Shown: in pieces, positions 4,407-19,479 of the stretch | Numbering within the stretch: position 1 is the first letter of the stretch | How the letters are laid out: each line of letters opens with the position of its first letter | DNA from: Polyangiaceae bacterium | GTDB lineage: Bacteria; Myxococcota_A; Polyangia; Polyangiales; Polyangiaceae | Length of the DNA stretch: 44,710 nucleotides | Direction: 5' to 3' | Assembly (NCBI GenBank): GCA_044224495.1 | Contig: JBGAKG010000005.1 | Span: forward strand, 1-44,710 | Translations under genes and position numbers: made by a program | The notes under the pieces: generated by a model | Told to the model about the DNA's origin: nothing | The model's input: only the letters and a program-made list of their open reading frames with translations | The model's database searches: none

Positions 4407-6398
4407 ATGGCGAAGAAGTCCAAGGCCACCCCCCCGCCGAAGCAGCCGAAAACGCCTGCCGCGAAAGCGAAGGCCGCTCCGGCGCCGGCAAAACCCGCCC
4501 CGGCGAAGAACGCGAAGGCGAAAGCGGCGGAAAAAGCACCGCCGCCGAAGGCCGCTCCGGCGAAGGCCGCCCCGGCGAAGGCCGCTCCGGCGAAGGCCGC
4601 TCCGGCGAAGGCCGTCGCCGCGCCGCCGCCGCCGCCTGCTTCCGAGCCGCCGCCCGCCTCCGAGCCGGAGCCGAAGGCCGCCCCCAAGCGGCGCGCCACC
4701 GCGGAGACGATGGGGGCGAAGCAGCGCGAGATCTCGGTCTCCGAGTTCTTCACCAAGAACCGCCACCTGCTCGGGTTCGACAACCCGGCGAAGGCCCTCC
4801 TGACCACGGTGAAGGAAGCGGTCGACAACTCGCTCGACGCCTGTGAAGAGGCGGGGATTCTTCCGGAGATCAAGGTCGAGATCACGGAGCTCGCGGAGAG
4901 CCGCTTCCGCGTCGCGATCGAGGACAACGGGCCCGGCATCGTGAAGCCGCAGATCCCGAAGATCTTCGCGAAGCTCCTCTACGGGTCGAAGTTCCACCGC
5001 CTGCGCCAGTCGCGCGGACAGCAGGGCATCGGCATCAGCGCCGCGGGTCTCTACGCGCAGCTCACGACCGGCAAGCCGGTGACGATCACGTCGAAGACGG
5101 GGAAGGGGCGCCCCGCGTTCAAGATCGAGCTCCGCATCGACACGAAGCGCAACCAGCCCGACGTCGTGAAGGACGAGACGGTCGACTGGGAGAAGGAGCA
5201 CGGCACGCGCGTCGAGATGGATCTCGTCGCGGCGTACCGCGGCGGCCGCACCGGCGTGCAGGAGTACTTGGAGCAGACGGTCGTCGCGAACCCGCACCTC
5301 GGGCTCACGTACAAGCCGCCGAAGGGGGAGACGCTCGTCTTCCCGCGCGTCTCCGATGACCTGCCGCGCGAGCCGCAAGAGATCAAGCCGCACCCGCATG
5401 GGATCGAGCTCGGCATGCTCCTCAACATGCTCTCGGACTCGCCGGGCAAGAACGTGAAGCAGGTGCTCGAGGACGACTTCTCGCGCGTGAGCCCCGCGAT
5501 CGCGAAGCAGATCCTGGACATCGCGAAGATCAACCCGAAGACGCGCGCGGACTCGATCATCGGCGAGGAGCTCGATCGGCTCTACAAGGCGCTCGGCGAG
5601 GTCAAGGTGATGGCGCCGTCGGCGAACAGCGTCGTCCCGATCGGGGAAGAGCTGCTCGTGAAGGGGCTCTTGCGCCGGTTCCCGAAGGCGGAGTTCAGTG
5701 TATCTTGCACGCGTCCGCCGAGCGTCTACCGCGGCAACCCGTTCGTGGTCGAGGTCGGGCTCGCGTACGGCGGCGACCTGCCGCTCGACGAGCCCGCGGA
5801 CGTCATGCGGTTCGCGAACCGCGTGCCGCTCCAGTACCAGCCGAAGGCGTGCGCGATCTCCGAGAGCGTGTACGACACGAACTGGAAGAACTACGAGCTC
5901 GCGCAGCCGCGGGGCTCGCTCCCGGTCGGGCCGGTCGCGATCGCGGTGCACCTCGCGAGCGTGTGGGTTCCGTTCACGAGCGAGGCGAAGGAAGCGGTCG
6001 CCCACTACGACGACCTGCTCCGCGAGATGAAGCTCGCGATCCAGGAGTGCGGGCGCAAGCTCGCCGCCCACCTACGGGCGCGCATCCGCGCGAACGCGGA
6101 GTCGAAGCGGCGCGGGATCTTCGAGCGCTACATCCCCGAGGTGAGCCGCGCGATCGCGGCGCTGCTCGACGTCGAGGCGGGGCCGATCGCGAAGCACTTC
6201 ACGACGGCGCTCCCCAAGTTCGTGAACGTGGAGCTGATCGACAAGGTCGAGACGGATGCCCCGAAGCGCGGTGGCGGCTCCGCGCCGCCGCCCCCGCCGT
6301 CCGAGGCACCGCCCCCCATGCCGAAGGTGCCCGCGGCGAAGGCCAAAGTGAAGGGGAAGACCAAGGGCAAGGACGACCGCCAACTGTCGCTGATGTAG
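4407..6398 (+). CDS. top6B: DNA topoisomerase VI subunit B (GHKL ATPase), with Lys/Ala/Pro-rich N- and C-terminal tails.
   Basis: Bergerat-fold boxes are present: N-box [13 protein letters not shown]1 IEDNGPGI, G2 [16 protein letters not shown] transducer-like region follows. The ~100-aa N-terminal tail (AKAAP repeats) and the K-rich C-terminal tail (…[11 protein letters not shown]) are low-complexity. Confidence 0.85.
4546..4614 (+). repeat. 15-bp tandem repeat, cgaaggccgcYccgg in 4 full copies plus a partial one, encoding (AKAAP)n inside top6B.
   Basis: Four full copies read directly at 4546, 4561, 4576 and 4591, then a partial ninth-nucleotide copy. Confidence 0.85.
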
Positions 6399-6414
6399 CC
6401 AAGGAACGAACACG

Positions 6415-7542
6415 ATGGCCTCCAAGAAGACGGCAGCAAAAGATTCGGCGAAGGAACGCGATCAGAAGACGCTCGCGAAGCTCCAGAAGCTCGCGGCGCA
6501 AGCCCTGGCGACGGTTCGTGGCGGTCGCAATCCGGCGCTCGAGATCCGCATGCGCGCGCTCTCGAACGTGTCGTTCAACGAGAAGAAGCGCATCATCGAG
6601 CTCGGCGACAAGACGCAGTCGCGCGAGTTCTTCAACACCGCCATGGCGCGGAAGTTCATGCAGACGTTCCTCCTCGCTCAGGGCTGCAAGGGCCTGATCG
6701 AAGAGGACAAGACGGTCAGCATTCGTCAGCTCTATTACATCTCGAAGCACACCGTCGAAGGCACCAGCGAGAACACCTTCGAAGATCAGAAGGAGAGCGA
6801 TCCGATCATCGAAGACCTCGAGGTCGCAGCGGACGCACTCCGCGAGGAGCTCCACCTCTTCGCGGCGAAGCGTGGCTCGATCGCAGGGGAGCTCGTGATT
6901 CGCGACAGCGGTGACGAGATCGATCTCTCGCGGCTCGGGAGCGGCGGGTGGTCGATCCCGGGGATCTGCGAGCCGAGCAAGGTGCAGTTCGTCCGCAACA
7001 AGGCGAAGTACGTCCTCTTCGTCGAGAAGGACGCAATGTTCAATCGCTTCAACGAGGACAAGTTCTGGCGCAAGAACGAGTGCATCGTGATGACGAGCGG
7101 AGGGCAGGCGACGCGCGGAGCGCGCCGACTGCTCCAGCGCATCGCGGGCGAGCTGAAGATCCCCGTCTACGTCCTCGTCGATAACGATCCGTGGGGGCTC
7201 TACATCTACTCGGTGCTCAAGCAGGGGAGCATCAGCCTCGCCTACGAGTCGATGCGGCTCGCCGTGCCGAACGTCCGGTTCCTCGGCATGAGCGCGTTCG
7301 ACTACAAGAAGTTCAACCTGTCCAAGTCGGTCATCATCAACTTGGAGAAGGAAGACATCGCGCGCGCGAACCAGATGAAGGCGTATGCCTGGTTCAAGGA
7401 CAAGAAGTGGCAGCGCGAGATCCAAGGCATCGTGGACAACGGCTTCAAGATGGAGCTCGACTCGTTCCTCACGAAGGGCGTCAGCTTCATCAGCGAGGAG
7501 TACGTCCCGAAGAAGCTCCGCGACCGCGACTGGATCGAGTGA
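6415..7542 (+). CDS. top6A: DNA topoisomerase VI subunit A (Spo11 / Top6A family).
   Basis: CAP-like domain with the catalytic-tyrosine motif RQLYYISK. Toprim domain with the acidic DxD motif (YVLVDNDPWG). Starts 16 nt after the top6B stop codon and is preceded by aaggaacgaacacg, a plausible SD. Confidence 0.85.
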   Translation: MASKKTAAKDSAKERDQKTLAKLQKLAAQALATVRGGRNPALEIRMRALSNVSFNEKKRIIELGDKTQSREFFNTAMARKFMQTFLLAQGCKGLIEEDKTVSIRQLYYISKHTVEGTSENTFEDQKESDPIIEDLEVAADALREELHLFAAKRGSIAGELVIRDSGDEIDLSRLGSGGWSIPGICEPSKVQFVRNKAKYVLFVEKDAMFNRFNEDKFWRKNECIVMTSGGQATRGARRLLQRIAGELKIPVYVLVDNDPWGLYIYSVLKQGSISLAYESMRLAVPNVRFLGMSAFDYKKFNLSKSVIINLEKEDIARANQMKAYAWFKDKKWQREIQGIVDNGFKMELDSFLTKGVSFISEEYVPKKLRDRDWIE

Positions 7543-10123: not shown

Positions 10124-11533
10124 ATGCCGCTCTTCCAGAAGGTTCTCATCGCCAACCGCGGAGAGATCGCTCGCCGCGTCATTCGCACCTGCAAGCGCCT
10201 CGGGATCGCGACGGTCGCCGTCTACTCCGAGGCGGACGCCGAAGCGCCGCACGTGACCGACGCCGACGAAGCCGTCGCGATCGGACCGGCGGCAGCCAAG
10301 GACTCGTACCTCTCGATCCCGGCGATCCTCGCCGCGATCGAGAAGACGGGGGCCACCGCAGTCCACCCCGGCTACGGCTTCTTGAGCGAGAAGAGCGCGT
10401 TCGCGCGCGCGCTCGCCGAGAAGAACGTCACCTTCGTCGGGCCGCCGCCCAACGTGCTCGACTCGTTCGGCGACAAGATGCGCGCTCGTCACGTCGCGCT
10501 CGCCGCGGGCACGTCGCCGGTGCCGGGCTCCGACGAGCCGCTCCCGATCGACACGCCCGAGGACATCGCCGCCGTGCGCACCCTCGTCGCAAAGGTCGGT
10601 TTCCCGATCGTCGTGAAGGCGGTCGGCGGCGGTGGCGGCATCGGCATGCAGGTCGTCCGCGAGGACGGGCAGCTCGAGCGCGCGCTCAAGAGCTGCTCGG
10701 ATCGCGGCAAGGCGTCGTTCGCCGACGCGCGCGTCTACCTCGAGCGCTACGCCTCCGAGCCGCGCCACATCGAGGTGCAGATCTTCGCCGACACCCACGG
10801 CAACTTCCACGCGCTCGGCGAACGGGAGTGCAGCCTCCAGCGGCGCCACCAGAAGATCGTCGAGGAGTCACCGTCGCCGGCGGCCTTCTTCGAGGGACCC
10901 GCCGGGGCCAAGCGCCGCTCGGACCTGCACGAAGCCGCGCTGCGCGTCGTCCGGCACGTCGGCTACGTGGGCGCGGGGACGTGCGAGTTCATCGCCGACG
11001 CCGAGGGCAACCTGTACTTCCTCGAGGTCAACGCCCGCCTCCAGGTCGAGCACCCGGTGACCGAGATGGTGACCGGTCTCGATCTCGTCGAGCTCCAGCT
11101 CCGCGTCGCCGCGGGCGAGAAGCTCCCGGATCTGTCGCAGCTCCAACGCAATGGCCACGCGATCGAGGCCCGCATCTACGCGGAGGACCCGAGCAAGGGC
11201 TTCATCCCCAAGCCGGGCCCGATCGACGAGCTCGTGTGGGCCGGCAAGAGCGGCGCCGAGGCCGACGTGCAGTCGAAGACCCTGCGCGTCGAGTCCGGCG
11301 TGCGCCCGGGCAACAAGGTCACGCCGTTCTACGATCCGATGATCGCGAAGCTCGTCGCGTGGGGCGAGACGCGAGCGGCAGCGATCGCCGAGCTCGATCG
11401 CGCGCTCGAAGGCTCCCGCGTCGCGCCGTGCACGACGAACATCGCGTTCCTCCGCAAGGCGCTCGCGTCGGAGGAGTTCCGCGCCGGCAAGTACGACACG
11501 AGCTTCGCCGAGATCCTCGCGAAGCGCCCGTGA
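10124..11533 (+). CDS. accC: Biotin carboxylase (ATP-grasp; the AccC-like subunit of an acyl/acetyl-CoA carboxylase).
   Basis: The N-terminus MPLFQKVLIANRGEIARRVIRTCKRLGI is canonical for biotin carboxylase. ATP-grasp and C-terminal BC domains are present. No BCCP or carboxyltransferase gene lies adjacent. Confidence 0.85.
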   Translation: MPLFQKVLIANRGEIARRVIRTCKRLGIATVAVYSEADAEAPHVTDADEAVAIGPAAAKDSYLSIPAILAAIEKTGATAVHPGYGFLSEKSAFARALAEKNVTFVGPPPNVLDSFGDKMRARHVALAAGTSPVPGSDEPLPIDTPEDIAAVRTLVAKVGFPIVVKAVGGGGGIGMQVVREDGQLERALKSCSDRGKASFADARVYLERYASEPRHIEVQIFADTHGNFHALGERECSLQRRHQKIVEESPSPAAFFEGPAGAKRRSDLHEAALRVVRHVGYVGAGTCEFIADAEGNLYFLEVNARLQVEHPVTEMVTGLDLVELQLRVAAGEKLPDLSQLQRNGHAIEARIYAEDPSKGFIPKPGPIDELVWAGKSGAEADVQSKTLRVESGVRPGNKVTPFYDPMIAKLVAWGETRAAAIAELDRALEGSRVAPCTTNIAFLRKALASEEFRAGKYDTSFAEILAKRP

Positions 11534-12388
11534 CTACGCCGACTGCGCTCGGCGCTTCACCCCGTGCGTCGATACGACACCCACGACGGTGAAGACGACG
11601 GCGAGCACGACGACGACGATCGTCGTCGTGGTCGTCGCTCGCCCACCCACGTGCGAGACGATGACGGCGGACGCGTTGTTCACGGCGTGCGCGGCGATCG
11701 CCCAGCGGATGCTGCCGGACTTGGTCGCCAACCACCCGAGGTAGAGCCCTACGAGCACGGCGAACGATCCTTGGAGCAGGTCGCCGTGGGTGATCCCGAA
11801 CATGAGCGCGGAGATCCCGATCCCGACCGCGGCGCCCCAGCGTCGCGCGAACACCGGGAGCAGGAAGCCTCGAAAGAGGAGCTCCTCGGCGACCGGTGCG
11901 AGCCCCCCGATCACCACGACCGACAGCACCCACACGAGCGGCGAAGCACGCTCGAACGCGCGGTTCATGATCGCGCTGTTGGAGTTCTCTCCGAACCCGA
12001 TCAGGTGGGCGGCGGTGTTGACGCCGAAGCTGATCCCGAGGACCCCGAGCGAGGCACCCGCGCCGCGGAGCCAGCCGAACGAGCTCGGCCCGAGCTCGAG
12101 CGGCGCTCCGAGGGGAGGGGGCTTCGCCCGCCAACGCTGGAGGAAGGAGCCGGCGACGGCGGTGGCCGCCAACCCGGCGCCGCTCCCGAAGGCGCTCGCG
12201 ACGAGCACGGGCGCCGAGAGCAAGTAGCTCGACACCTCTTCGCCGAAGACCCCGGACGAAGGAAGCCCGTCCCAGAAGTGGACGGCCAGCATCGCGCCCG
12301 CGGTGGGGATGGAGAAGAGCACCGACGCGAGCACGCCTGCGATCCACGCGACGAATCCGGGCCAGACCGCCGGCCGCTTCGGGTCCAT
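11534..12388 (-). CDS. CPBP-family intramembrane metalloprotease (CAAX protease / Abi-like).
   Basis: Multi-pass membrane protein with the EELLFRG motif, FGITHG, and a conserved His-containing helix (AHAVNN). Confidence 0.75.
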   Translation of the reverse strand: MDPKRPAVWPGFVAWIAGVLASVLFSIPTAGAMLAVHFWDGLPSSGVFGEEVSSYLLSAPVLVASAFGSGAGLAATAVAGSFLQRWRAKPPPLGAPLELGPSSFGWLRGAGASLGVLGISFGVNTAAHLIGFGENSNSAIMNRAFERASPLVWVLSVVVIGGLAPVAEELLFRGFLLPVFARRWGAAVGIGISALMFGITHGDLLQGSFAVLVGLYLGWLATKSGSIRWAIAAHAVNNASAVIVSHVGGRATTTTTIVVVVLAVVFTVVGVVSTHGVKRRAQSA

Positions 12389-12406
12389 CGCCCTACGGTA
12401 GTGGCG

Positions 12407-12979
12407 TCAGCGTGTCACGTCGACGTTGTACACCGCGTCACCGGACGTGGCCGTGCCGGTGATGTGGGTGGTGCCCGGTTTGCGCTCGACGATCTTCGGG
12501 TCCTGCGCGTTCGCCTGGAGCGTGCCCGAGAACGTGAGGTTCAGGGTGACCGAGCCCTTCAGGTCGCCGTCCATCGCGTAGGTGCCGACGAGCGTGCCGT
12601 TCAAGGTCCCGGTCGGGATGTTCTTCAGCTGCATGTCGAGGTGCGGGGGCGTCGCATCGCTCGTCGCGAACGTCAGCTTGCCGTCGTCCGAGTAGGTGAC
12701 GAGCTTCTCGACCAGGCGCATCCCCTTGTTGGCGGACGCGCCTTGGTCGACCTGTCCCGTGATCGTCATCGTCCCGGACTTCGCCCCGTTCGCGTTCTGC
12801 GGATCGATGTTGGCGCTCTTCGCCGCGTTGAAGCCGGCGAACCCGAGCGTGATGGCCTTGTCGATCGACGGATCCAGCCCGAGGTAGGCCTGCTGGGCCT
12901 CCTCGGTGGAGCTCACCCCCGAGCTGCTGCATGCAGCGACGACGACGAGGGCGAGCGAGGCGAGTCCGAAGCGATTCAT
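12407..12979 (-). CDS. Hypothetical lipoprotein (190 aa).
   Basis: Signal peptide plus lipobox (LVVVAACSS). Start confirmed at the ATG at 12979. The upstream in-frame Ala/Arg-rich portion of the 450-aa ORF in the track is rejected. Confidence 0.6.
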   Translation of the reverse strand: MNRFGLASLALVVVAACSSSGVSSTEEAQQAYLGLDPSIDKAITLGFAGFNAAKSANIDPQNANGAKSGTMTITGQVDQGASANKGMRLVEKLVTYSDDGKLTFATSDATPPHLDMQLKNIPTGTLNGTLVGTYAMDGDLKGSVTLNLTFSGTLQANAQDPKIVERKPGTTHITGTATSGDAVYNVDVTR

Positions 12980-13022
12980 GAAGGAGACCTTTCGCGGTTG
13001 GGGTGAAGAAGAGCGCACACGC

Positions 13023-14432
13023 TCAGTTCGGCGGCGGAACCACGCAGCGGCCGCCGGTGCACGGCACGCCGTTGCAGCAGTCACCCGAGACCGTGCACGC
13101 CTGGCCGTAGAGGGCGCAGCCCGCGTCGGTCGTGGTGCCGCTGTCGGGCGGGAACCCGCAGATGCCGCCCGTGCAGGGGAGGCCCTTGCAGCAATCGCCG
13201 TTCGTCGTGCACTTCTGGCCTTCCGGCACGCAGCTGCCGCCGCAGATGAACGGCGGGTTGCCGCTCGGGTTCGGGACGCAGGGGAGACCGCAGCAGTCCG
13301 CGCTCGACGAGCACGCCTTGCCGGCGAGGCTTCCGCCGTCGGGCGACACGCCCGCGTCCTGGCACTGGCCGACGCCGGTGCAGCGCGGGATGCCGAGGAG
13401 GTCCTGCTGGCAGACGAGCGGGTTCGTGTTGACGTTGCCCGAGCAGCAGTTGTTTTCGGCGTTGCAGCTCGACGTCGCGAGCTTGCAGATCGCGCCCGCC
13501 GGGCGACACGCCGTGCCGTTGTCGCAGCGACCCGCGCCCGCGTCCGGGGTGGCCTTGCTGCAGATGACGCTGCCGTTCGCGCCGCCCTTGTTGTTCTTGG
13601 AGCCGCAGCAATCGTCGTCGTTCGCGCAGATCTCGCCGGTCGGCTTGCAGCCGCTCGGCGGCTGGCAGATGCTGATGTTGGGGACCAAGCCCGGCGCGCA
13701 CGCGCGGCTGCAGCAGTTGCCGCCGCACGGCGGGATGCCGCCGTCACCGATGCCACCATCGAAGGTGCCGCACACGGTCCCCGCGATGTCGCACTGCGTT
13801 CCGCCGGGGGCCGGCGGGACGCCGCAGATGCCGACCGAGGCGTTCGGCGCGATCACGCAGCTGTTGCCGCAGCAATCGGCGTTCTGCTTGCAGATGTCGC
13901 CGGTCTGGCCACAGAACGAGACCTGCTGGAGGCAGATGCCGCCCTGGCAGACCTTCGAGCAGCACTCACCGTTCGCGGTGCAGGCGTTGCCCGACGTCTT
14001 GCACGAGAGGTTCAGCGGCTGGCAGACCTTCGCGCCGCCGTCCACGCCGGCGCACTTCTGTCCGCAGCACTCCCCGTCGCTCGAGCACGCTTGGTTGTCG
14101 CCCGTGCACTTGGTGCCGCACTTGCCGCCGACGCACCCGAGCGAACAGCACTCCGTGCCGGTCGTGCAGCTGTCGTTGGCGGGCTTGCAGTTGTTCACCG
14201 GGGCGCCGCAGACGCCGAGGTTCGTGCAGTTCGAGCTGCAGCAATCCGTCGGCTTCGTACAGACCGCGCCGGTCAGGCCACACTGGCCGCCGTCGCCCGT
14301 CGAGCCTTCGGTGTCGCCGTCCGTCGTCGAGGCATCGACCGTCGCGTTGTCGTCACCACCGCAACCCCCGACCCACGCTGCCATCCCAATCGCCGAGCAG
14401 GCGAGGGCCACGACCCAAATTCGACGCATCAT
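13023..14432 (-). CDS. Secreted cysteine-rich repeat protein built from ~11 tandem ~30-aa modules with a C-x5-C-x5-CC-x3-C-xn-C framework.
   Basis: Signal peptide MMRRIWVVALACSAIGMAAWVGGCGG, then repeated modules such as CTKPTDCCSSNCTNLGVC, CSSDGECCGQKCAG and CTTNGDCCKGLPCTGGIC. Confidence 0.8.
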   Translation of the reverse strand: MMRRIWVVALACSAIGMAAWVGGCGGDDNATVDASTTDGDTEGSTGDGGQCGLTGAVCTKPTDCCSSNCTNLGVCGAPVNNCKPANDSCTTGTECCSLGCVGGKCGTKCTGDNQACSSDGECCGQKCAGVDGGAKVCQPLNLSCKTSGNACTANGECCSKVCQGGICLQQVSFCGQTGDICKQNADCCGNSCVIAPNASVGICGVPPAPGGTQCDIAGTVCGTFDGGIGDGGIPPCGGNCCSRACAPGLVPNISICQPPSGCKPTGEICANDDDCCGSKNNKGGANGSVICSKATPDAGAGRCDNGTACRPAGAICKLATSSCNAENNCCSGNVNTNPLVCQQDLLGIPRCTGVGQCQDAGVSPDGGSLAGKACSSSADCCGLPCVPNPSGNPPFICGGSCVPEGQKCTTNGDCCKGLPCTGGICGFPPDSGTTTDAGCALYGQACTVSGDCCNGVPCTGGRCVVPPPN

Positions 14433-14540
14433 GTCGACCTCCCGATGCCAACCATCGAAGGGTTAGGTACGACCACCTCGAGCGATCCGGCGTCTTGGCC
14501 CGCGATTCGGTGCGATACGCACCCACCTCGGTACCGTGGC

Positions 14541-15692
14541 TCAGTGCACCAGTGGGGTGCAGCGGAGGGCACCGGAGACGTGCGTGCACGTCGAGCTCGC
14601 GTTGCAGCAGTCGCCACGCACCGAGCAGAGCGCGCCGTCCGGCACGCAGCCGATCGTGCAACGCAGGTTGCCTTCGCCGTCGGGAGCGCAGCGGCCCTGG
14701 CAACACTGCGCGGTCAACGCACACGGCGAGCCGTCGCTGAAGCACGCGGAGGTGGGCGAGCAGCGCTTCACGCCGGAGCTCGTCGGCTCCGGCGCGCACG
14801 GGCCGGTGCAACACTCGCTGGCTTTGGCGCACGCCTCGCCGAGGGCGCCGCACGACTTCAGCGCGCAGCGAGAGATCCCATCGCTGTCCGCGGCGCACGC
14901 ACCGGAGCAGCAGTCCGCGTCCTTCGTGCAGGTCTCGCACGTCGGGCGGCAGCCGCCGAGCGGTGCGCAGCGGCGCGTGCCGTCCGATGTGGGTTGGCAC
15001 CGGCGCGAGCAGCAGTCGTCGTCGAGCGTGCAGACCTCTTCGGCCACGGCGGTGCACCCGGTCCCGTCGTTCGTCGCGCACTGAGCGGCCGGCGCGCACC
15101 GACCCACGCCGTCGCTTCCGGTCACGCAGCGGCTCGAGCAGCAGGATGCGCCCACCGAGCACAGCTCGCCCGCGACGCGGCACCCCTGGAGGAGCGCGCA
15201 CCGCCGCTCGCTGCCCTTCTTCTCGCACACCCGCCCGCAGCACTCGCTGTCCGCGGTGCAGAGCTCGCCGGCCGGGCTGCACGTCGGCGCCGCCACGCAG
15301 AGCTGGTTCGCACAGCGCCCGCTGCAGCAGTCGGGCCCTCCCGCGCAGGCCGTGCCCGCCGCGCCGCAGATGCCGCTCGTGCACGTGCGGCTGCCCTCCG
15401 TCCCCGCGCACGAGAGGGAGCAACAGTCGCCCGCGGTGGAGCAGCTCGCCCCGAGCGCCTTGCACCCGTTGGGTTGCCGGCACGTGAGCTGCCCCAGCGT
15501 GTCGACCGCGCACAGGCCACTGCAGCACTCCGCGGACTCGGCGCAGGCTTGGCCGATGTCCTTCTTGTTCGTGCAACCGGCGTCGCCGCTGTCGGGCGAG
15601 CCGGGCGGCGGGCGGTCGAGCACGGCCAGGTTCGACGCTTCGCAGGCGACGACGAACGCCGCGACGGCGAGGGTGGTCAGAAGGTGGCGCAT
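14541..15692 (-). CDS. Secreted cysteine-rich repeat protein, a paralogous architecture with 10 modules of the C-C-CC-C-C framework.
   Basis: Start confirmed at the ATG at 15692 (MRHLLTTLAVAAFVVACEAS). Modules include CAESAECCSGLCAV, CSTAGDCCSLSCAG and CTKDADCCSGACAA. The upstream part of the 651-aa ORF in the track is Arg-rich junk. Confidence 0.8.
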   Translation of the reverse strand: MRHLLTTLAVAAFVVACEASNLAVLDRPPPGSPDSGDAGCTNKKDIGQACAESAECCSGLCAVDTLGQLTCRQPNGCKALGASCSTAGDCCSLSCAGTEGSRTCTSGICGAAGTACAGGPDCCSGRCANQLCVAAPTCSPAGELCTADSECCGRVCEKKGSERRCALLQGCRVAGELCSVGASCCSSRCVTGSDGVGRCAPAAQCATNDGTGCTAVAEEVCTLDDDCCSRRCQPTSDGTRRCAPLGGCRPTCETCTKDADCCSGACAADSDGISRCALKSCGALGEACAKASECCTGPCAPEPTSSGVKRCSPTSACFSDGSPCALTAQCCQGRCAPDGEGNLRCTIGCVPDGALCSVRGDCCNASSTCTHVSGALRCTPLVH

Positions 15693-16720
15693 GCGCCGAG
15701 CCCTCCTCCCACGCCCGGACCGCCGACGCCCACCACCGTGCTCGACGCGTCGAGCGCGCGAACGGGGCGCAACGGCAGCACGAACGCGACGTCCGCATAG
15801 AGACGCACCCAGCGCCCCAGCGCGAGCCAACCCTGCATGCCGACGTCGATCAGCGTCGTCACGTCGCTCTGCGGGTTCGCCGTCGCGCCGGGCGCCGCCG
15901 TCGCGCCGTACGCGATGCGCGCCACCGTCGCGCGGGCGGTCGCATCGAGGCCGAGCCGACCTGCCGGCGGTGTGAGGGTCAGCGCGGCGCCGAGCCCGCC
16001 CCCAATCGCGCTCGGCGAGACGCGCCCGTCGCCGGACGACGCAGAGAGCCCACCGCGGAGCGCGAGGTGCAACGCGAGCGAGAAGCGCGGGATCACCCAG
16101 AGCGAGGCCACGACGTCGCCGCCGATCAACGTTGCCCCTTCGGCGAAGTGCTCGATCGCGGCGCGCGCTCCGAGACGCGCGCGCGGGGTCGACGGGCCCG
16201 GCGGCGGCGGACGCCGGATCCCGTCGTCGACGGCGTCGCGGACGGCCTTCGGGGGCGGCTCTGCCGGGGGCGGCGCGTCCGCGAGCGCGAGCTCGGCCCA
16301 GCTCGCGCGCAGGAGCTCGTCCATCGCGACGGCGACGAGGAGCGGGCGCGCGTCGGCGGGGTAGCTCCCGACCGGAACGTCGCGCTTCACCTCCTTCGCC
16401 GTGATGCGGTCGCGCACCTCGATCGTCAGCGTGACGTCGTTCTCGTGCGTGACCAGGTGCACCGCCGCGATGGGGCGTCGCTCTCCGCCGGAGCACAGCT
16501 GGAGCCCGCGTGACTCGAGCTCCGTCCGGAGCAGCCGCAGCAGCCTGTCCCGATCGATCTGGACGTCGTCGTCGACGACTGCTTCGACGGCGGGCAGGTC
16601 CGGCTTGCAGGGCTCCGCCAGCGCTTCGGAGGCGGCACCGAGAGTCACCCCGAGCGGCGCGCCGATCAGCGCCGCCCGCGCGAGCCCTTCAACGACAACG
16701 GTTCGCCACGTCCGCTGCAT
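15677..16720 (-). CDS. Hypothetical secreted protein (possibly an outer-membrane protein; the C-terminus ends …GLGACATF).
   Basis: Signal peptide MQRTWRTVVVEGLARAALIGAPLGVTLGAASEALA. The start was chosen at 16720. The Arg-rich extension up to 16975 overlaps the anti-sigma gene and is rejected. Lies between the anti-sigma gene and the Cys-rich genes. Confidence 0.5.
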   Translation of the reverse strand: MQRTWRTVVVEGLARAALIGAPLGVTLGAASEALAEPCKPDLPAVEAVVDDDVQIDRDRLLRLLRTELESRGLQLCSGGERRPIAAVHLVTHENDVTLTIEVRDRITAKEVKRDVPVGSYPADARPLLVAVAMDELLRASWAELALADAPPPAEPPPKAVRDAVDDGIRRPPPPGPSTPRARLGARAAIEHFAEGATLIGGDVVASLWVIPRFSLALHLALRGGLSASSGDGRVSPSAIGGGLGAALTLTPPAGRLGLDATARATVARIAYGATAAPGATANPQSDVTTLIDVGMQGWLALGRWVRLYADVAFVLPLRPVRALDASSTVVGVGGPGVGGGLGACATF

Positions 16721-17702
16721 GCACACCGTTCGGATACCGAGCAGCGTACGCGTCCCGAGCCGAGACGCAACGGGAGTCATGGGAGCGCTCCAGCGCCTCG
16801 ACGCGCCGCGCCTCCGCGTCCTCGCGGAACGACGCGTTCGGCGCGAGCACGAGCGCATCGTCCAACGCCTCCACCGCGCCCTTCGGATCGCCGAGCGTGT
16901 CGAGCCGCAGGCGGCCGAGCTCGAACGCCGCGATCCCTGCGCGCGGGTCCGAGCGGTACTGGCGGCGGAGCGCATCGAGCGCCGCGGCCGCGTCGCGCGG
17001 CTTGCCCGAGATCCGCGCTTCGTCGGCCTGCTCCATGAGCTCCTTCGCCGTTGCGCGCGGCTTCACCGCGACCGTGGCCGTGACGGTCGGCTCCACCTGC
17101 GTCGCGCTCGGCGGCGCGGTGGTCGTCGGGGCAACGTCGATCCGTCCCGCCTCCACGTCGGCCGTGCCGTCCCAGCTCTCGTGCGCAGCGACCACGCGGA
17201 CGAGCACGCCGTCGCGCCGGACCTCGACCGCACCCTCGCGCACCTCGACGTGGACGGCCCCCGGCGTCCGCTCGACGCGGAACGTGGTGCCGACGTCGAT
17301 CACGTCGTAGGGACCGGCGTGGACGACGAAGCGACGCGTCTCGACGTGCGGCACGACGAAGTCGGCCGCGCCGTGGTCGATCGTGAGGGCAATCGTCTCG
17401 CGCGCCGCCATGTCGACCCGGACGTCCGCATCGGCGTGCGGGGTCACGCGCGCACCATCGGGGAGGACGATCGCGGCATCGCTCGCGGCGGGAAGGGGCG
17501 CTTTCGCCGTCGCGATCGGCGCCGGCTTGTCGTGGAACGCGAAGAACAGGGCGACCGCCGCCGCCGCCGCCAGCGCACCGCCGCCGGCGACCCACCCGAT
17601 TCGGCGCGGGGGAGGGCTCGCGACGACGGCGAGCGCGCGATCGATCCGCGCCTCGTCGACCTCGCTCCGGACCCAGTGACTCAGGTCTTGCGGTTCGCTC
17701 AT
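16689..17702 (-). CDS. FecR-domain anti-sigma factor (single transmembrane segment; periplasmic FecR domain plus a TPR-like tail).
   Basis: Start MSEPQDLSHW at 17702, overlapping the sigma-factor stop codon by 4 nt (ATGA). A TM helix (WVAGGGALAAAAAVALFFAF) and FecR-like beta region (DGARVTPHADADVRVD…VHVEVREGAVEV) are present. Confidence 0.75.
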   Translation of the reverse strand: MSEPQDLSHWVRSEVDEARIDRALAVVASPPPRRIGWVAGGGALAAAAAVALFFAFHDKPAPIATAKAPLPAASDAAIVLPDGARVTPHADADVRVDMAARETIALTIDHGAADFVVPHVETRRFVVHAGPYDVIDVGTTFRVERTPGAVHVEVREGAVEVRRDGVLVRVVAAHESWDGTADVEAGRIDVAPTTTAPPSATQVEPTVTATVAVKPRATAKELMEQADEARISGKPRDAAAALDALRRQYRSDPRAGIAAFELGRLRLDTLGDPKGAVEALDDALVLAPNASFREDAEARRVEALERSHDSRCVSARDAYAARYPNGVHAADVANRCR

Positions 17703-18430
17703 CGGTCCCCCCGCTCGAGCTCGATGAGGAGCTCGTCTTCGGCCGCCTCGACCCAGCGCTTGGCGGAGCGCGGGGAAGTATCCATCAACCGAGCGATGTC
17801 GTCGTAGGACGCGCCGTCGATCCGGCGGAGGACGAGCGCCACGCGTTCCCGCGCCGGCAAGCGCTCGAGGCAACGGAACACGGCGGCGAGCTCGCTCCGT
17901 ACGTCGGGCGGGGCCTCGCGGCTGATCAGGAGATCGACGTCGATGGTGGGGCCGCGGCGACGCAACCCGAGCCGCGTCGCGATCCCGCGCCGCCGGATGA
18001 CCTTGCACGCCGTCCGCACGACGATCGCCGACAGCCACGAACCGAACGCCTCGGGCGCCTCGAGTCGGTCGAGCGCCCGCACCGCCGCGAGCATGCTCTC
18101 CTGGACGAGATCGTCGACCTCACCATCGGTGCGACCGAGCAGGCGCTGCGAGAGCCCGAACACCGAACGCGCGTGGCGGCGGAAGAGCTCCTCCCGCGCG
18201 CGCGTATCGCCCCCGCGCGCCGCGAGCACGAGCGACGCATCGATGCTCCCCGAGCCGGACGATCGCGTGAGCGGGTTGCTCGGCCGCGAGCTGCTCTCCG
18301 GGCCGGGCTCGGCGGCATCGTCTCGCACGGTCGAGCTCACCGGAGCTTCCTCCGTGGGCGTGACGAGCGCGAGGTGGGTGCGGCGATGCTCCATGGCCTC
18401 GTAGCCCAAGGTACCGCATGGCCTCTCCAC
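17699..18430 (-). CDS. ECF (sigma-70 family, group 4) RNA polymerase sigma factor.
   Basis: Region 2 (ELFRRHARSVFGLSQRLLG…DLVQESMLAAV) and region 4 (LERLPARERVALVLRRIDGASYDDIARLM). The ATG at 18430 is preceded by a ggagagg SD. An alternative start lies at 18394. Confidence 0.8.
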   Translation of the reverse strand: MERPCGTLGYEAMEHRRTHLALVTPTEEAPVSSTVRDDAAEPGPESSSRPSNPLTRSSGSGSIDASLVLAARGGDTRAREELFRRHARSVFGLSQRLLGRTDGEVDDLVQESMLAAVRALDRLEAPEAFGSWLSAIVVRTACKVIRRRGIATRLGLRRRGPTIDVDLLISREAPPDVRSELAAVFRCLERLPARERVALVLRRIDGASYDDIARLMDTSPRSAKRWVEAAEDELLIELERGDR

Positions 18431-18485
18431 CCGGCGTTTTCCTGCGAAAACCGTGGGTCGATGAAGTGAGCGCGCTTACGGTGTC

Positions 18486-18510
18486 CCACCTGACCTGACC
18501 TGACCTAACC
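18486..18510. repeat. Pentameric tandem repeat (ccacc tgacc tgacc tgacc taacc) lying between the dehydrogenase stop codon and the ECF sigma start.
   Basis: Read directly from the sequence: five NNACC units abutting the stop codon at 18511. Confidence 0.7.
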
Positions 18511-19479
18511 TCAAACGCCCGGATACGGGGTGGGCAACGGCGCACCGGAAATCCAGGCCAACACGTTGGCGACGGCGAGGCTCGCCATCGCTTCGCGCGT
18601 CGCGCTCTCCGCGCTCCCGACGTGGGGGGTCAGCACGGCGGTCGGGGCGCGAAGGAGCGCCGGATCGACCCGCGGTTCGTCGGCGAAGACGTCGAGCCCT
18701 GCCGCCCCGACCCGGCCGCTCGCGAGCGCATCCGCCAGCGCCCGCTCGTCGACGCAGCCCCCACGCGCCGTGTTCACGAAGATCGCCCCCGGCTTCATCT
18801 TCGCGAATCGTGCCGCGTCGAACAGGCGCCGCGTCTCCGCGGTGAGAGGGCAGTGGAGCGAGACCACGTCGGACCGTTCGAGGAGCTCGTCGAGCTCGAC
18901 CCGGGTCGCGCCGAGCTCTGCTTCGCGCTCGGCGGGGAGGGCACTCCGTTGATGGTAGAGTACATGCATCGCGAAGCCGCGTGCGCGGCGCGCCACCGCC
19001 TGCCCGATCCGGCCCATCCCGACGAGCCCGAGGGTGCGGTGGTGGACCGCCGCGCCCAACATCGTCCCGAGCGTCCACCGCGGGAACGCTCCCTCGTGCA
19101 CGAGCCGGTCGCCTTCGCAGACCCGCCGCGCCGCCGCGAGGATCAAGGCGAACGTCAGATCGGCGGTGGCGTCGGTCAGGACGTCCGGCGTGTGCGTGAC
19201 GCGCACGCCGTGGGCGCGACACGCGTCCAGGTCGACGTGATCGACGCCGACGGCCACGTTGGCGACGAGGCGGAGGCGCGGCGCACGCGCGAGGAGATCT
19301 TCGTCGATCCGGTCGGTGAGGAGCGCGACGAGCGCATCGACCCGCGCGAGCTCGTCGGCCCCGAGGGCGGAGACGCCCACGCCGGTCTCGCCGACCGTCA
19401 CGTCGGCCACGGCTTCGAGCCGCGCCACGCCGTCGCCGAGGAGCGGGGCGCTCACGAAGACCCGCGGGCGGGCGTTCAT
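18511..19479 (-). CDS. D-isomer-specific 2-hydroxyacid dehydrogenase (glyoxylate / hydroxypyruvate reductase-like).
   Basis: NAD-binding motif GLVGMGRIGQAV, catalytic-region motifs, and the start MNARPRVFVSAPL at 19479. The upstream part of the 474-aa ORF is Arg-rich junk. Confidence 0.8.
   Translation of the reverse strand: MNARPRVFVSAPLLGDGVARLEAVADVTVGETGVGVSALGADELARVDALVALLTDRIDEDLLARAPRLRLVANVAVGVDHVDLDACRAHGVRVTHTPDVLTDATADLTFALILAAARRVCEGDRLVHEGAFPRWTLGTMLGAAVHHRTLGLVGMGRIGQAVARRARGFAMHVLYHQRSALPAEREAELGATRVELDELLERSDVVSLHCPLTAETRRLFDAARFAKMKPGAIFVNTARGGCVDERALADALASGRVGAAGLDVFADEPRVDPALLRAPTAVLTPHVGSAESATREAMASLAVANVLAWISGAPLPTPYPGV

Follow-up and report, generated by a model that had tools for sequence, protein, structure and literature searches.

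Introduction

In the FecI/FecR/FecA system, an extracytoplasmic function (ECF) sigma factor is cotranscribed with a single-pass FecR protein and is encoded together with an outer-membrane barrel that carries an extra periplasmic N-terminal domain. The same features, along with likely autoregulation, are found in the gene cluster described here, which occupies positions 11534-18437 on the minus strand of a 44,710-nucleotide stretch of DNA from a Polyangiaceae bacterium, a soil myxobacterium (contig JBGAKG010000005.1 of assembly GCA_044224495.1). This whole stretch, with a G+C content of ~70%, is referred to below as the window. The cluster departs from FecI/FecR/FecA in that its predicted barrel is 8-stranded and OmpA-like rather than a 22-strand TonB-dependent transducer, with no Plug, TonB_dep_Rec or STN match, its anti-sigma factor has a C-terminal TPR rather than FecR_C domain and a cytoplasmic part of ~35 aa, a lipoprotein whose N-terminal motif is conserved is added as a fourth component, and the cassette has no transport function. 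Of the features that define FecIRA, the FecR domain and the single transmembrane (TM) helix are found here and the TonB-dependent STN transducer and FecR_C are not; by analogy, the cassette appears to work like FecIRA-type signalling without being a member of that type. The region is best read as a single copy of an envelope cassette that is conserved in Polyangia and whose four core genes encode the sigma factor, a FecR+TPR anti-sigma factor, the barrel protein and a lipoprotein.

Outer-membrane lipoproteins also serve as sensors that report the state of the envelope to an inner-membrane regulator, as RcsF does with OmpA, OmpC and OmpF and as NlpE does with Cpx. In general terms, these systems share with the cassette the combination of an outer-membrane lipoprotein with a barrel and a flexible N-terminal tether. 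However, their regulators are the Rcs phosphorelay and the Cpx two-component system rather than an ECF sigma/anti-sigma pair, the sequences are unrelated, and the barrel of the cassette is a dedicated, co-encoded protein with a periplasmic domain of its own.

Among the classified ECF sigma factors, ECF267 is a small group outside the FecI clade, confined to Proteobacteria under an older taxonomy (Casas-Pastor et al. 2021, PMC7826278). The published account of this group stresses a conserved Ser/Thr kinase nearby and makes no mention of an outer-membrane barrel or of Cys-rich lipoproteins (PMC7826278). As in ECF267, a FecR+TPR protein adjoins the sigma factor in the window, but there is no kinase in the cluster at 11534-18437, kinases being found near one related locus, L005. 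Membership in ECF267 is a lead only.

Two lipoproteins of the cluster, named cys1 and cys2 here, are built from tandem modules that share the six-Cys framework, the CC-x3-C spacing and the C5-C6 hairpin with inhibitor cystine knot (ICK) peptides, or knottins, such as omega-atracotoxin-Hv1a, the omega-conotoxins and SOTI-III. Disulfide-rich domains in tandem are also known from the tandem ICK forms, i.e., the double-knot toxin DkTx and the remipede Xt3a, and from SCREPs, tandem disulfide-rich repeat proteins that have been catalogued with many unannotated bacterial ones included (PMC6262176, PMC9885460). In contrast to the ICK and tandem ICK peptides, the window proteins are bacterial and predicted to be lipid-anchored, they carry ten or eleven modules rather than one or two, each conserved in its own right, and their genes belong to a sigma-factor operon; the likeness may reflect either homology or convergence. 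The original prediction, made from the sequence of the window, had regarded the system as a candidate for something not yet described. In the literature, no description was found of this cassette or of knottin-array lipoproteins, although the KNOTTIN database paper already names 'bacterial knottins', an uncharacterised family with no experimentally solved structure (PMC5753296). Described here is an ECF/FecR envelope system whose outer-membrane components are novel and include a ten-module array of bacterial knottins.

Gene organization and encoded proteins

The cluster consists of seven tightly packed genes, with the sigma gene first and a CPBP protease gene last. Its features, all on the minus strand, are as follows.

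17699-18394, minus strand: ECF (group 4) sigma factor, 231 aa; the open reading frame (ORF) reaches a GTG at 18430; Pfam and NCBIfam matches
16689-17702, minus strand: anti-sigma-like membrane protein, 337 aa; FecR domain, one TM helix, TPR
15677-16720, minus strand: outer-membrane barrel protein, 347 aa, ending in ATF; signal peptide, N-domain, Pro-rich linker, predicted 8-stranded barrel
14541-15692, minus strand: cys1, knottin-module lipoprotein, 383 aa, 63 Cys; VVAC lipobox, 10 regular modules
13023-14432, minus strand: cys2, lipoprotein, 469 aa, 70 Cys, ~11 modules; VGGC lipobox, Conotoxin_I2 match
12407-12979, minus strand: small lipoprotein, 190 aa; ORF with VAAC lipobox
11534-12388, minus strand: CPBP/Rce1-like intramembrane protease, 284 aa; PF02517, 7.3e-20
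18410-18437, minus strand: candidate ECF-type promoter of the sigma operon; -35 ACGCCG at 18437-18432, 16-nt spacer, -10 GGTACC at 18415-18410
14466-14493, minus strand: second copy of the promoter motif, before cys2; ACGCCG, 16-nt spacer, CGTACC

All six minus-strand genes listed in the original prediction are present, but the cluster extends one gene further, to the CPBP/Rce1-like protease gene at 11534-12388. The sigma and anti-sigma, anti-sigma and barrel, and barrel and cys1 genes overlap by 4, 32 and 16 nt, respectively, and these four genes therefore form one operon.

The sigma factor was identified through the Pfam families Sigma70_r2 (9e-13), Sigma70_r4_2 (2e-13) and Sigma70_ECF (1.8e-6) and the NCBIfam family TIGR02937 (1e-18), and it has regions 2 and 4 alone with a co-transcribed membrane anti-sigma factor, as is typical of ECF group 4. 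The ORF from 17699 to 18430, to which the gene was originally assigned, does exist, but the likely start is the ATG at 18394, because the conserved -10 element GGTACC lies upstream of this codon at 18410-18415; the chosen start agrees with the start context in the related locus L088. The ATG of the anti-sigma gene overlaps the sigma stop codon (ATGA), and the FecR-type assignment of its product, already made at the outset, is borne out by PF04773 (2.8e-11, residues 73-160). The C-terminal half of this protein matches TPR_14 and, as was not recognized earlier, TPR_16 (PF13432; 31.5 bits, just below the 32.7-bit cut-off). Its sequence reads as a cytoplasmic N-terminus of ~35 aa and one hydrophobic helix (~37-56), followed by the periplasmic FecR and TPR domains, the latter of which holds a conserved Cys pair; comparison with the PDB gave marginal matches at best. 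A protein of this layout adjoins sigma in most of the 80 related loci described below. In L002 (8289-9974, minus strand), sigma and FecR are found in a single 561-aa ORF, which is either a natural fusion or an assembly error; if natural, it would back a direct functional link between the two.

In the barrel protein, a periplasmic alpha/beta N-domain (~44-145), whose ELLRASWAEL helix is invariant, is joined by a Pro-rich linker to the C-terminal barrel (181-346), which ends in ATF. With a signal peptide, eight antiparallel amphipathic strands and a C-terminal aromatic residue, the protein has the hallmarks of an OmpA-like barrel and resembles the 8-stranded barrels of OmpA/OprF, in line with the earlier suspicion that the ATF-ending protein resides in the outer membrane. 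The protein has no match at all in Pfam, with Plug, TonB_dep_Rec and STN included in the search.

The Cys-rich proteins, originally thought to be free secreted proteins, are better described as lipoproteins, since a lipobox, i.e., a signal peptide ending in [LVI][ASTVI][GAS]C, is found in both cys1 (VVAC) and cys2 (VGGC). The 190-aa protein, which had been called a small lipoprotein from the start, carries VAAC, and lipid anchoring is predicted for all three. The lipobox Cys is at least 90% conserved in the orthologues and also across the 59 post-barrel lipoproteins described below.

A few kb from the cluster, genes at 4407-7542 on the plus strand of the window encode subunits B (PF09239, 5e-52) and A (PF21180, 4e-56) of topoisomerase VI; these genes, too, are syntenic in L088.

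Distribution of the cassette

A profile of the barrel family was used to search one genome per species and found 105 genomes, 80 of which were listed and their loci retrieved. All 80 are Polyangia/Myxococcota metagenome-assembled genomes (MAGs), and most of their loci have the sigma, FecR and barrel genes side by side in one orientation. Only the ~20 closest loci have a knottin array behind the barrel gene. Elsewhere, the post-barrel gene encodes a lipoprotein of 370-430 aa, which is an RCC1-type propeller (PF25390, 1e-59 to 3e-79) or a 35-Cys protein without a family match; the Cys count of the post-barrel lipoproteins is 63, 35 or 14-21. Their mature N-terminus follows C-x5/6-(E)-V-L-x-P in all 59 non-redundant loci, with the V fixed in 53 and the L in 56; in cys1, the motif segment is CEASNLAVLDRP, which lies in the low-confidence region 19-38 of the structure model presented below. 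Judged from these comparisons, the wider cassette takes interchangeable lipoprotein bodies of several kinds, and the knottin array is one of them.

The neighbourhood of the cys1 homologues is similarly constant, their contigs carrying a sigma factor, a FecR(+TPR) protein, a ~330-aa protein and a Cys-rich protein, the gene for which is co-directional in L003/L004, L006 and L007 and divergent in L002 and L005. The synteny of all seven genes is kept in L088, and a metagenome scan with cys1 added the loci L099 and L101, where sigma and FecR genes stand beside knottin genes. An ECF sigma factor is encoded within ~3 kb at nine of the nine knottin-gene loci that have at least 3 kb of sequence on both sides, and none of these loci is without one; the co-occurrence of the Cys-rich genes with a sigma factor, which the original prediction had made a point on which it could fail, thus holds in relatives. 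The cys2-type proteins elsewhere belong to a permuted cassette, composed of a knottin lipoprotein, a 350-aa protein, an ECF sigma factor and an anti-sigma-like protein with one TM helix. The 350-aa protein reads as an N-domain, a Pro-rich linker and a barrel on inspection of its sequence; a profile comparison of the barrel family with this protein detected no homology.

A third lipoprotein variant stands after the barrel gene in L020, L021, L027 and L030. It starts with CDGGxNEVLDNP and has ~35 Cys and a Gly/Asn/Ser-rich linker, with no Pfam match. Two copies of the cassette also occur within single MAGs (L017 and L046; L056 and L070; L018 and L067), showing that the sigma/FecR/barrel system is paralogously expanded within genomes; of these six paralogous loci, L017, L018 and L046 alone have an adjacent knottin gene.

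The knottin modules of cys1

The mature N-terminus of cys1, C-EASNLAVLDRP, is followed by a disordered tether (19-38) and then by 10 collinear modules, the number first counted in this 383-aa protein. All ten modules fit the pattern C-x6-C-x5-CC-x3-C-x4-11-C, in which the gap between C1 and C2 is mostly 6 residues rather than the five given at first. The 63 Cys comprise 60 in the modules, the lipobox Cys and the invariant C205 and C252. In 24 collinear orthologues, the 60 module cysteines are invariant or nearly so, and the same ten modules stand in the same order, each with its position-specific conserved residues, including an invariant PAGE in module 4 and an invariant RVxGE in module 5; many of the orthologues have exactly 63 Cys. 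Such regularity far exceeds what chance would produce. A profile of the cys1 family found 1043 clusters at E<=1e-3 among 1.84 billion representatives, i.e., the family is rare, and no functional name appears among the matches listed.

An AlphaFold2 model of cys1, built with the 24 collinear orthologues, has a mean pLDDT of 86.2 and a pTM of 0.78, with residues 19-38 (pLDDT < 50) as its sole low-confidence part. DSSP assigns a C5-C6 beta-hairpin in the modules of the model, e.g., residues 61-63 with 69-71 and 95-98 with 101-104. In Foldseek comparison with the PDB, all of the best matches to the model are single or tandem ICK peptides, among them omega-atracotoxin, maurocalcin, imperatoxin, the trypsin inhibitor SOTI-III and double-ICK toxins, with TM scores of 0.6-0.73 on the target and rmsd values of 1.4-2.2 Å, at E-values of at least 0.6, which are not significant because the domains are so small. 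In place of EGF-like repeats, the modelling therefore predicts knottin-like modules, as the original prediction had proposed.

A sequence profile built solely from 18 modules of the window retrieved 19 PDB sequences at E <= 1, nearly all of them ICK peptides, the best being a venom polypeptide (8e-5) and omega-atracotoxin-Hv1a (2e-3), followed by an Aca toxin, the conotoxins GXIA and SVIB, SOTI-III and maurocalcin. The profile and family scores of the modules are dominated by the cysteines; some of the PDB matches share non-Cys residues as well, e.g., P-x-G and CCS. The Pfam matches of the orthologues are all to Cys-rich toxin families, mostly ICK (Conotoxin_I2, Omega-toxin, Toxin_18, Toxin_29 and Toxin_21), with one weak match to UPF0506.

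Further indication of the disulfide pattern comes from natural losses of cysteines. C1 and C4 are the one internal pair that homologues lose jointly. All 10 clean cases in the alignment of the orthologues, spread over three modules and several lineages, are of this kind, and so are 26 cases among 1144 modules of 122 proteins, a set in which no (2,5), (3,6) or EGF-type pair is lost. This co-loss argues for a C1-C4 (I-IV) disulfide. Loss of C1-C4 leaves a two-disulfide hairpin core, which is thought to be ancestral to ICK folds. Four independent lines, i.e., Pfam, the PDB profile, the structure model and the cysteine losses, agree in supporting the prediction that the modules are knottins.

Several other folds were considered. 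EGF-like modules have no Pfam or NCBIfam match, and the co-loss of C1 and C4 contradicts EGF pairing; granulin and the Myxococcus Cys-rich repeat (TIGR02232) likewise have no match in either collection, nor does Dickkopf/colipase, colipase being a weak and poorly superposed Foldseek match. The pairwise co-loss also stands against a metallothionein-like reading.

The array had been pictured as beads on a string, but cys1 looks rigid and collinear, given its pTM of 0.78 and an order of the 10 modules that the orthologues share, and its modules are probably packed into one body. No conserved cleavage motif was found in the inter-module linkers (3-6 residues). Two of the roles suggested earlier appear unlikely in light of these results, namely metal binding, given the pairwise loss of Cys, and processing into peptides, given the predicted lipid anchors, the collinearity, the high conservation and the linkers without a cleavage motif.

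Promoter motifs and probable transcription units

For the candidate promoter at 18410-18437, the sigma ATG lies 15 nt beyond the -10 element, and downstream of the copy before cys2 there is a GGGAGG ribosome-binding site, followed by the ATG at 14432. The pattern CGCCG-N16-SGTACC has exactly two matches in the 44.7-kb window, at 18410-18436 and 14466-14492, compared with an expected 0.11, and two matches were reached in 0 of 100 shuffles. The second copy falls in the interval 14433-14540, one of those originally suggested as a place to look for an ECF promoter. Scans of 11400-18700 for sigma-70 promoters and intrinsic terminators gave nothing convincing.

Related motifs were found by a dyad search in 65 regions upstream of sigma genes, which yielded TGAGCC-N15/16-GGTAC(T), the best dyads occurring in ~20 sequences vs. 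at most 15 for any dyad of the shuffled sets. With two mismatches allowed, the family consensus TGA[GAC]CC-N15/16-GGTAC is present upstream of the sigma gene in 44 of the 65 loci, at a constant distance of 10-15 nt from the start codon. When exact agreement is required, 2.0 Mb of sequence contain 70 matches, which for the most part precede sigma genes; the remaining ones are divergent from sigma or lie between a cys1-type gene and its downstream neighbour, the latter placement of the family motif being found in L002, L005, L007, L011, L026, L053 and L015. The window and its two closest relatives use a clade variant, (A/G)CGCCG-N16-(G/C)GTACC. In both L088 and L008, the motif before sigma keeps its position, and L088 carries the clade variant at both places, before sigma and before cys2.

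Because ECF sigma factors usually autoregulate, the motif would, by analogy, be recognized by the sigma factor of the cluster itself. Since the motif precedes both sigma and cys2, the cluster is probably organized as two transcription units under the same sigma factor, one from sigma to cys1 and the other from cys2 to, probably, the CPBP gene. The originally proposed link between the Cys-rich genes and the sigma pair is upheld by both units, with cys1 in the overlapping operon and cys2 behind its own copy of the sigma-type motif.

Two further sequence elements lie near these promoters. A TGAGCC hexamer, identical to the consensus -35 element, overlaps the cys1 stop codon at 14538-14543 (minus strand), with no GGTAC 15-17 nt downstream of it; it may be the remnant of an older promoter, because several loci carry the complete motif right after the cys1-type gene. 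In addition, a tandem repeat, GGTTAGGTCAGGTCAGGTCAGGTGGG, with three to four GGTCA units, is located at ~18485-18510 (minus strand) between the stop codon of a 2-hydroxyacid dehydrogenase gene and the sigma promoter, and has no counterpart where L088 and L008 align with the window.

Genes of the probable second unit

In cys2, seven modules are canonical and several are degenerate or contain insertions. The earlier description of a 469-aa protein with ~11 modules holds for the length and the approximate number, but not for the regularity of the modules, seven being fully canonical and several degenerate; a hidden Markov model (HMM) of the module finds 10. The protein scores 39.3 bits against the Pfam family Conotoxin_I2 in five stretches, above the 27-bit cut-off. 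Neither cys2 nor the 190-aa lipoprotein has the (E)VL-x-P N-terminal motif. The mature part of the latter is devoid of Cys, and the protein has no family match and, in a PDB search, marginal matches at best.

Between the window and L088, identity is 88% for cys2, which makes it the best conserved protein of the cluster, 83% for the 190-aa lipoprotein, 77% for the dehydrogenase, 72% for sigma and 55% for the CPBP protease. At the sequence level, cys2 and the small lipoprotein appear to be constrained, unlike fast-evolving toxins. The CPBP gene, which starts 18 nt past the gene for the small lipoprotein, probably closes the cys2 transcription unit; its link to the cluster is limited to the clade of the window, in which it is syntenic in L088.

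Proposed mechanism and alternative explanations

We consider it about evenly balanced whether the cluster encodes an autoregulated, TonB-independent cassette with a putative role in envelope signalling, in which the barrel and the lipoprotein would be the outer-membrane partner of the anti-sigma factor. In this proposal, the lipoprotein would dock onto the barrel protein via its N-terminal strand C-x5/6-(E)VL-x-P, and the pair would form an outer-membrane input module whose state is read by the periplasmic FecR/TPR part of the anti-sigma factor. The released sigma factor would then transcribe its own operon from the promoter at 18410-18437 and the second unit, i.e., cys2, the 190-aa lipoprotein gene and probably the CPBP gene, from 14466-14493. 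The gene content, the predicted folds, the support for C1-C4 pairing, the conserved cassette with its N-terminal motif and the pair of promoter motifs come directly from the analysis; we infer the docking, which way the signal flows, what kind of signal it is and that the promoters are specific to this sigma factor. The disorder of the cys1 segment 19-38 in the isolated AlphaFold2 model would fit a docking peptide.

Several points weigh against this proposal. The N-domain of the barrel protein has no match to any known signalling domain, an 8-stranded barrel cannot pass a folded protein, and the lipoprotein may be either periplasmic or exposed on the cell surface. The anti-sigma factor has a cytoplasmic part (~35 aa) far shorter than a canonical anti-sigma domain, and the -35 element ACGCCG of the window differs from the family consensus TGAGCC. 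The cys1-type genes that are divergent from sigma (L002 and L005) have no clear sigma-type motif in front of them, so that sigma control of the knottin gene is not universal. Casas-Pastor et al. are unsure whether FecR+TPR proteins regulate the neighbouring ECF267 sigma factors (PMC7826278), and every genome listed or examined that has the cassette is an uncultured MAG. Finally, genes within a sigma operon can simply be its outputs.

This last point leads to the main rival explanation, to which we assign a real but clearly minor chance, namely that the barrel and the knottin lipoproteins are not a sensor but outputs of a stress-responsive ECF sigma factor, made as needed for the envelope or surface, where they might be stable adhesins, bind prey or matrix components, or inhibit foreign proteases, with the sigma/anti-sigma pair sensing something else. 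Transcription of the barrel and knottin genes with sigma or from the same motif is as this explanation would have it, and knottins elsewhere are typically very stable binders or inhibitors, the SOTI-III trypsin inhibitor being among the structural matches; in addition, cys2 and the 190-aa lipoprotein have no docking-like motif and yet are the best conserved, which fits effectors with fixed targets. However, the C1-C2 loops (xxxGxx) are unlike canonical inhibitor loops, and outputs alone leave it unexplained why the barrel and an invariant-motif lipoprotein are kept with sigma and anti-sigma across species although the body is swapped, and why the four genes stay together despite a permuted order. 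These two observations, together with the divergent cys1-type gene that has no clear sigma-type promoter, favour, though they do not prove, a structural partnership.

The Cys content of the lipoproteins invites two other explanations. An improbable one takes cys1, with its ~31 disulfides, as a sentinel of oxidative folding or envelope redox that would report failed disulfide formation to the anti-sigma factor, as NlpE reports to Cpx, or, in a variant, has its thiols buffer metals. Every lipoprotein variant of the cassette is indeed Cys-rich (63, 35 or 14-21), and the TPR domain of the anti-sigma factor has its conserved periplasmic Cys pair; however, the pairwise loss of C1 and C4 and the confident knottin models indicate structural disulfides rather than metal-thiolate clusters, and the invariant non-Cys motifs PAGE and RVxGE imply specific binding surfaces rather than a generic folding reporter. 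Less probable still, to the point that we give it very little credence, is that cys1 and cys2 are polyprotein precursors cut, perhaps by the CPBP protease, into ~30-aa knottin toxins or antimicrobials. The modules do resemble omega-atracotoxin and omega-conotoxin in their framework and in some non-Cys residues, and a CPBP-family protease gene stands at the end of the cluster, but the link of the latter is confined to the clade of the window. The conserved lipobox anchors, the 3-6-residue linkers without a conserved cleavage motif, the fixed order of modules with their own conserved residues at each position in the 24 orthologues and the pTM of 0.78, which points to a defined multi-module body, all speak against release of single modules, as does the 88% identity of cys2 between relatives, unlike that of fast-evolving toxins.

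Implications

Returning to the signalling cassette with barrel and lipoprotein as its input module, the observed combination of a swappable lipoprotein body with an invariant, docking-like N-terminus suggests a modular coupling of the outer membrane to an ECF sigma factor without a TonB-dependent transducer. A bolder and more specific version, which we regard as possible though rather unlikely, is a Polyangia-specific form of TonB-independent trans-envelope signalling, in which interchangeable lipoprotein heads would plug via C-x5/6-EVL-x-P into an OmpA-like barrel whose periplasmic domain talks to the FecR+TPR anti-sigma factor; three heads have been found to date, a rigid rod of ten knottins, an RCC1 propeller and a 35-Cys domain. 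If this were true, the rod, with its module number fixed at ten, would serve as a spacer or ruler across the periplasm, or else as a surface-exposed receptor, and no bacterial knottins would have been linked to a defined cellular pathway before these.

Knottins are valued for their extreme stability as scaffolds, and those known come almost entirely from animals, plants and fungi. The conserved ten-module knottin lipoproteins described here come with a defined genetic context, through which their function can be tested by way of the sigma factor, the two predicted promoters and the barrel partner. The cassette itself may matter more than the knottins, as it would give a function to a poorly understood group of ECF sigma factors with FecR-TPR proteins.

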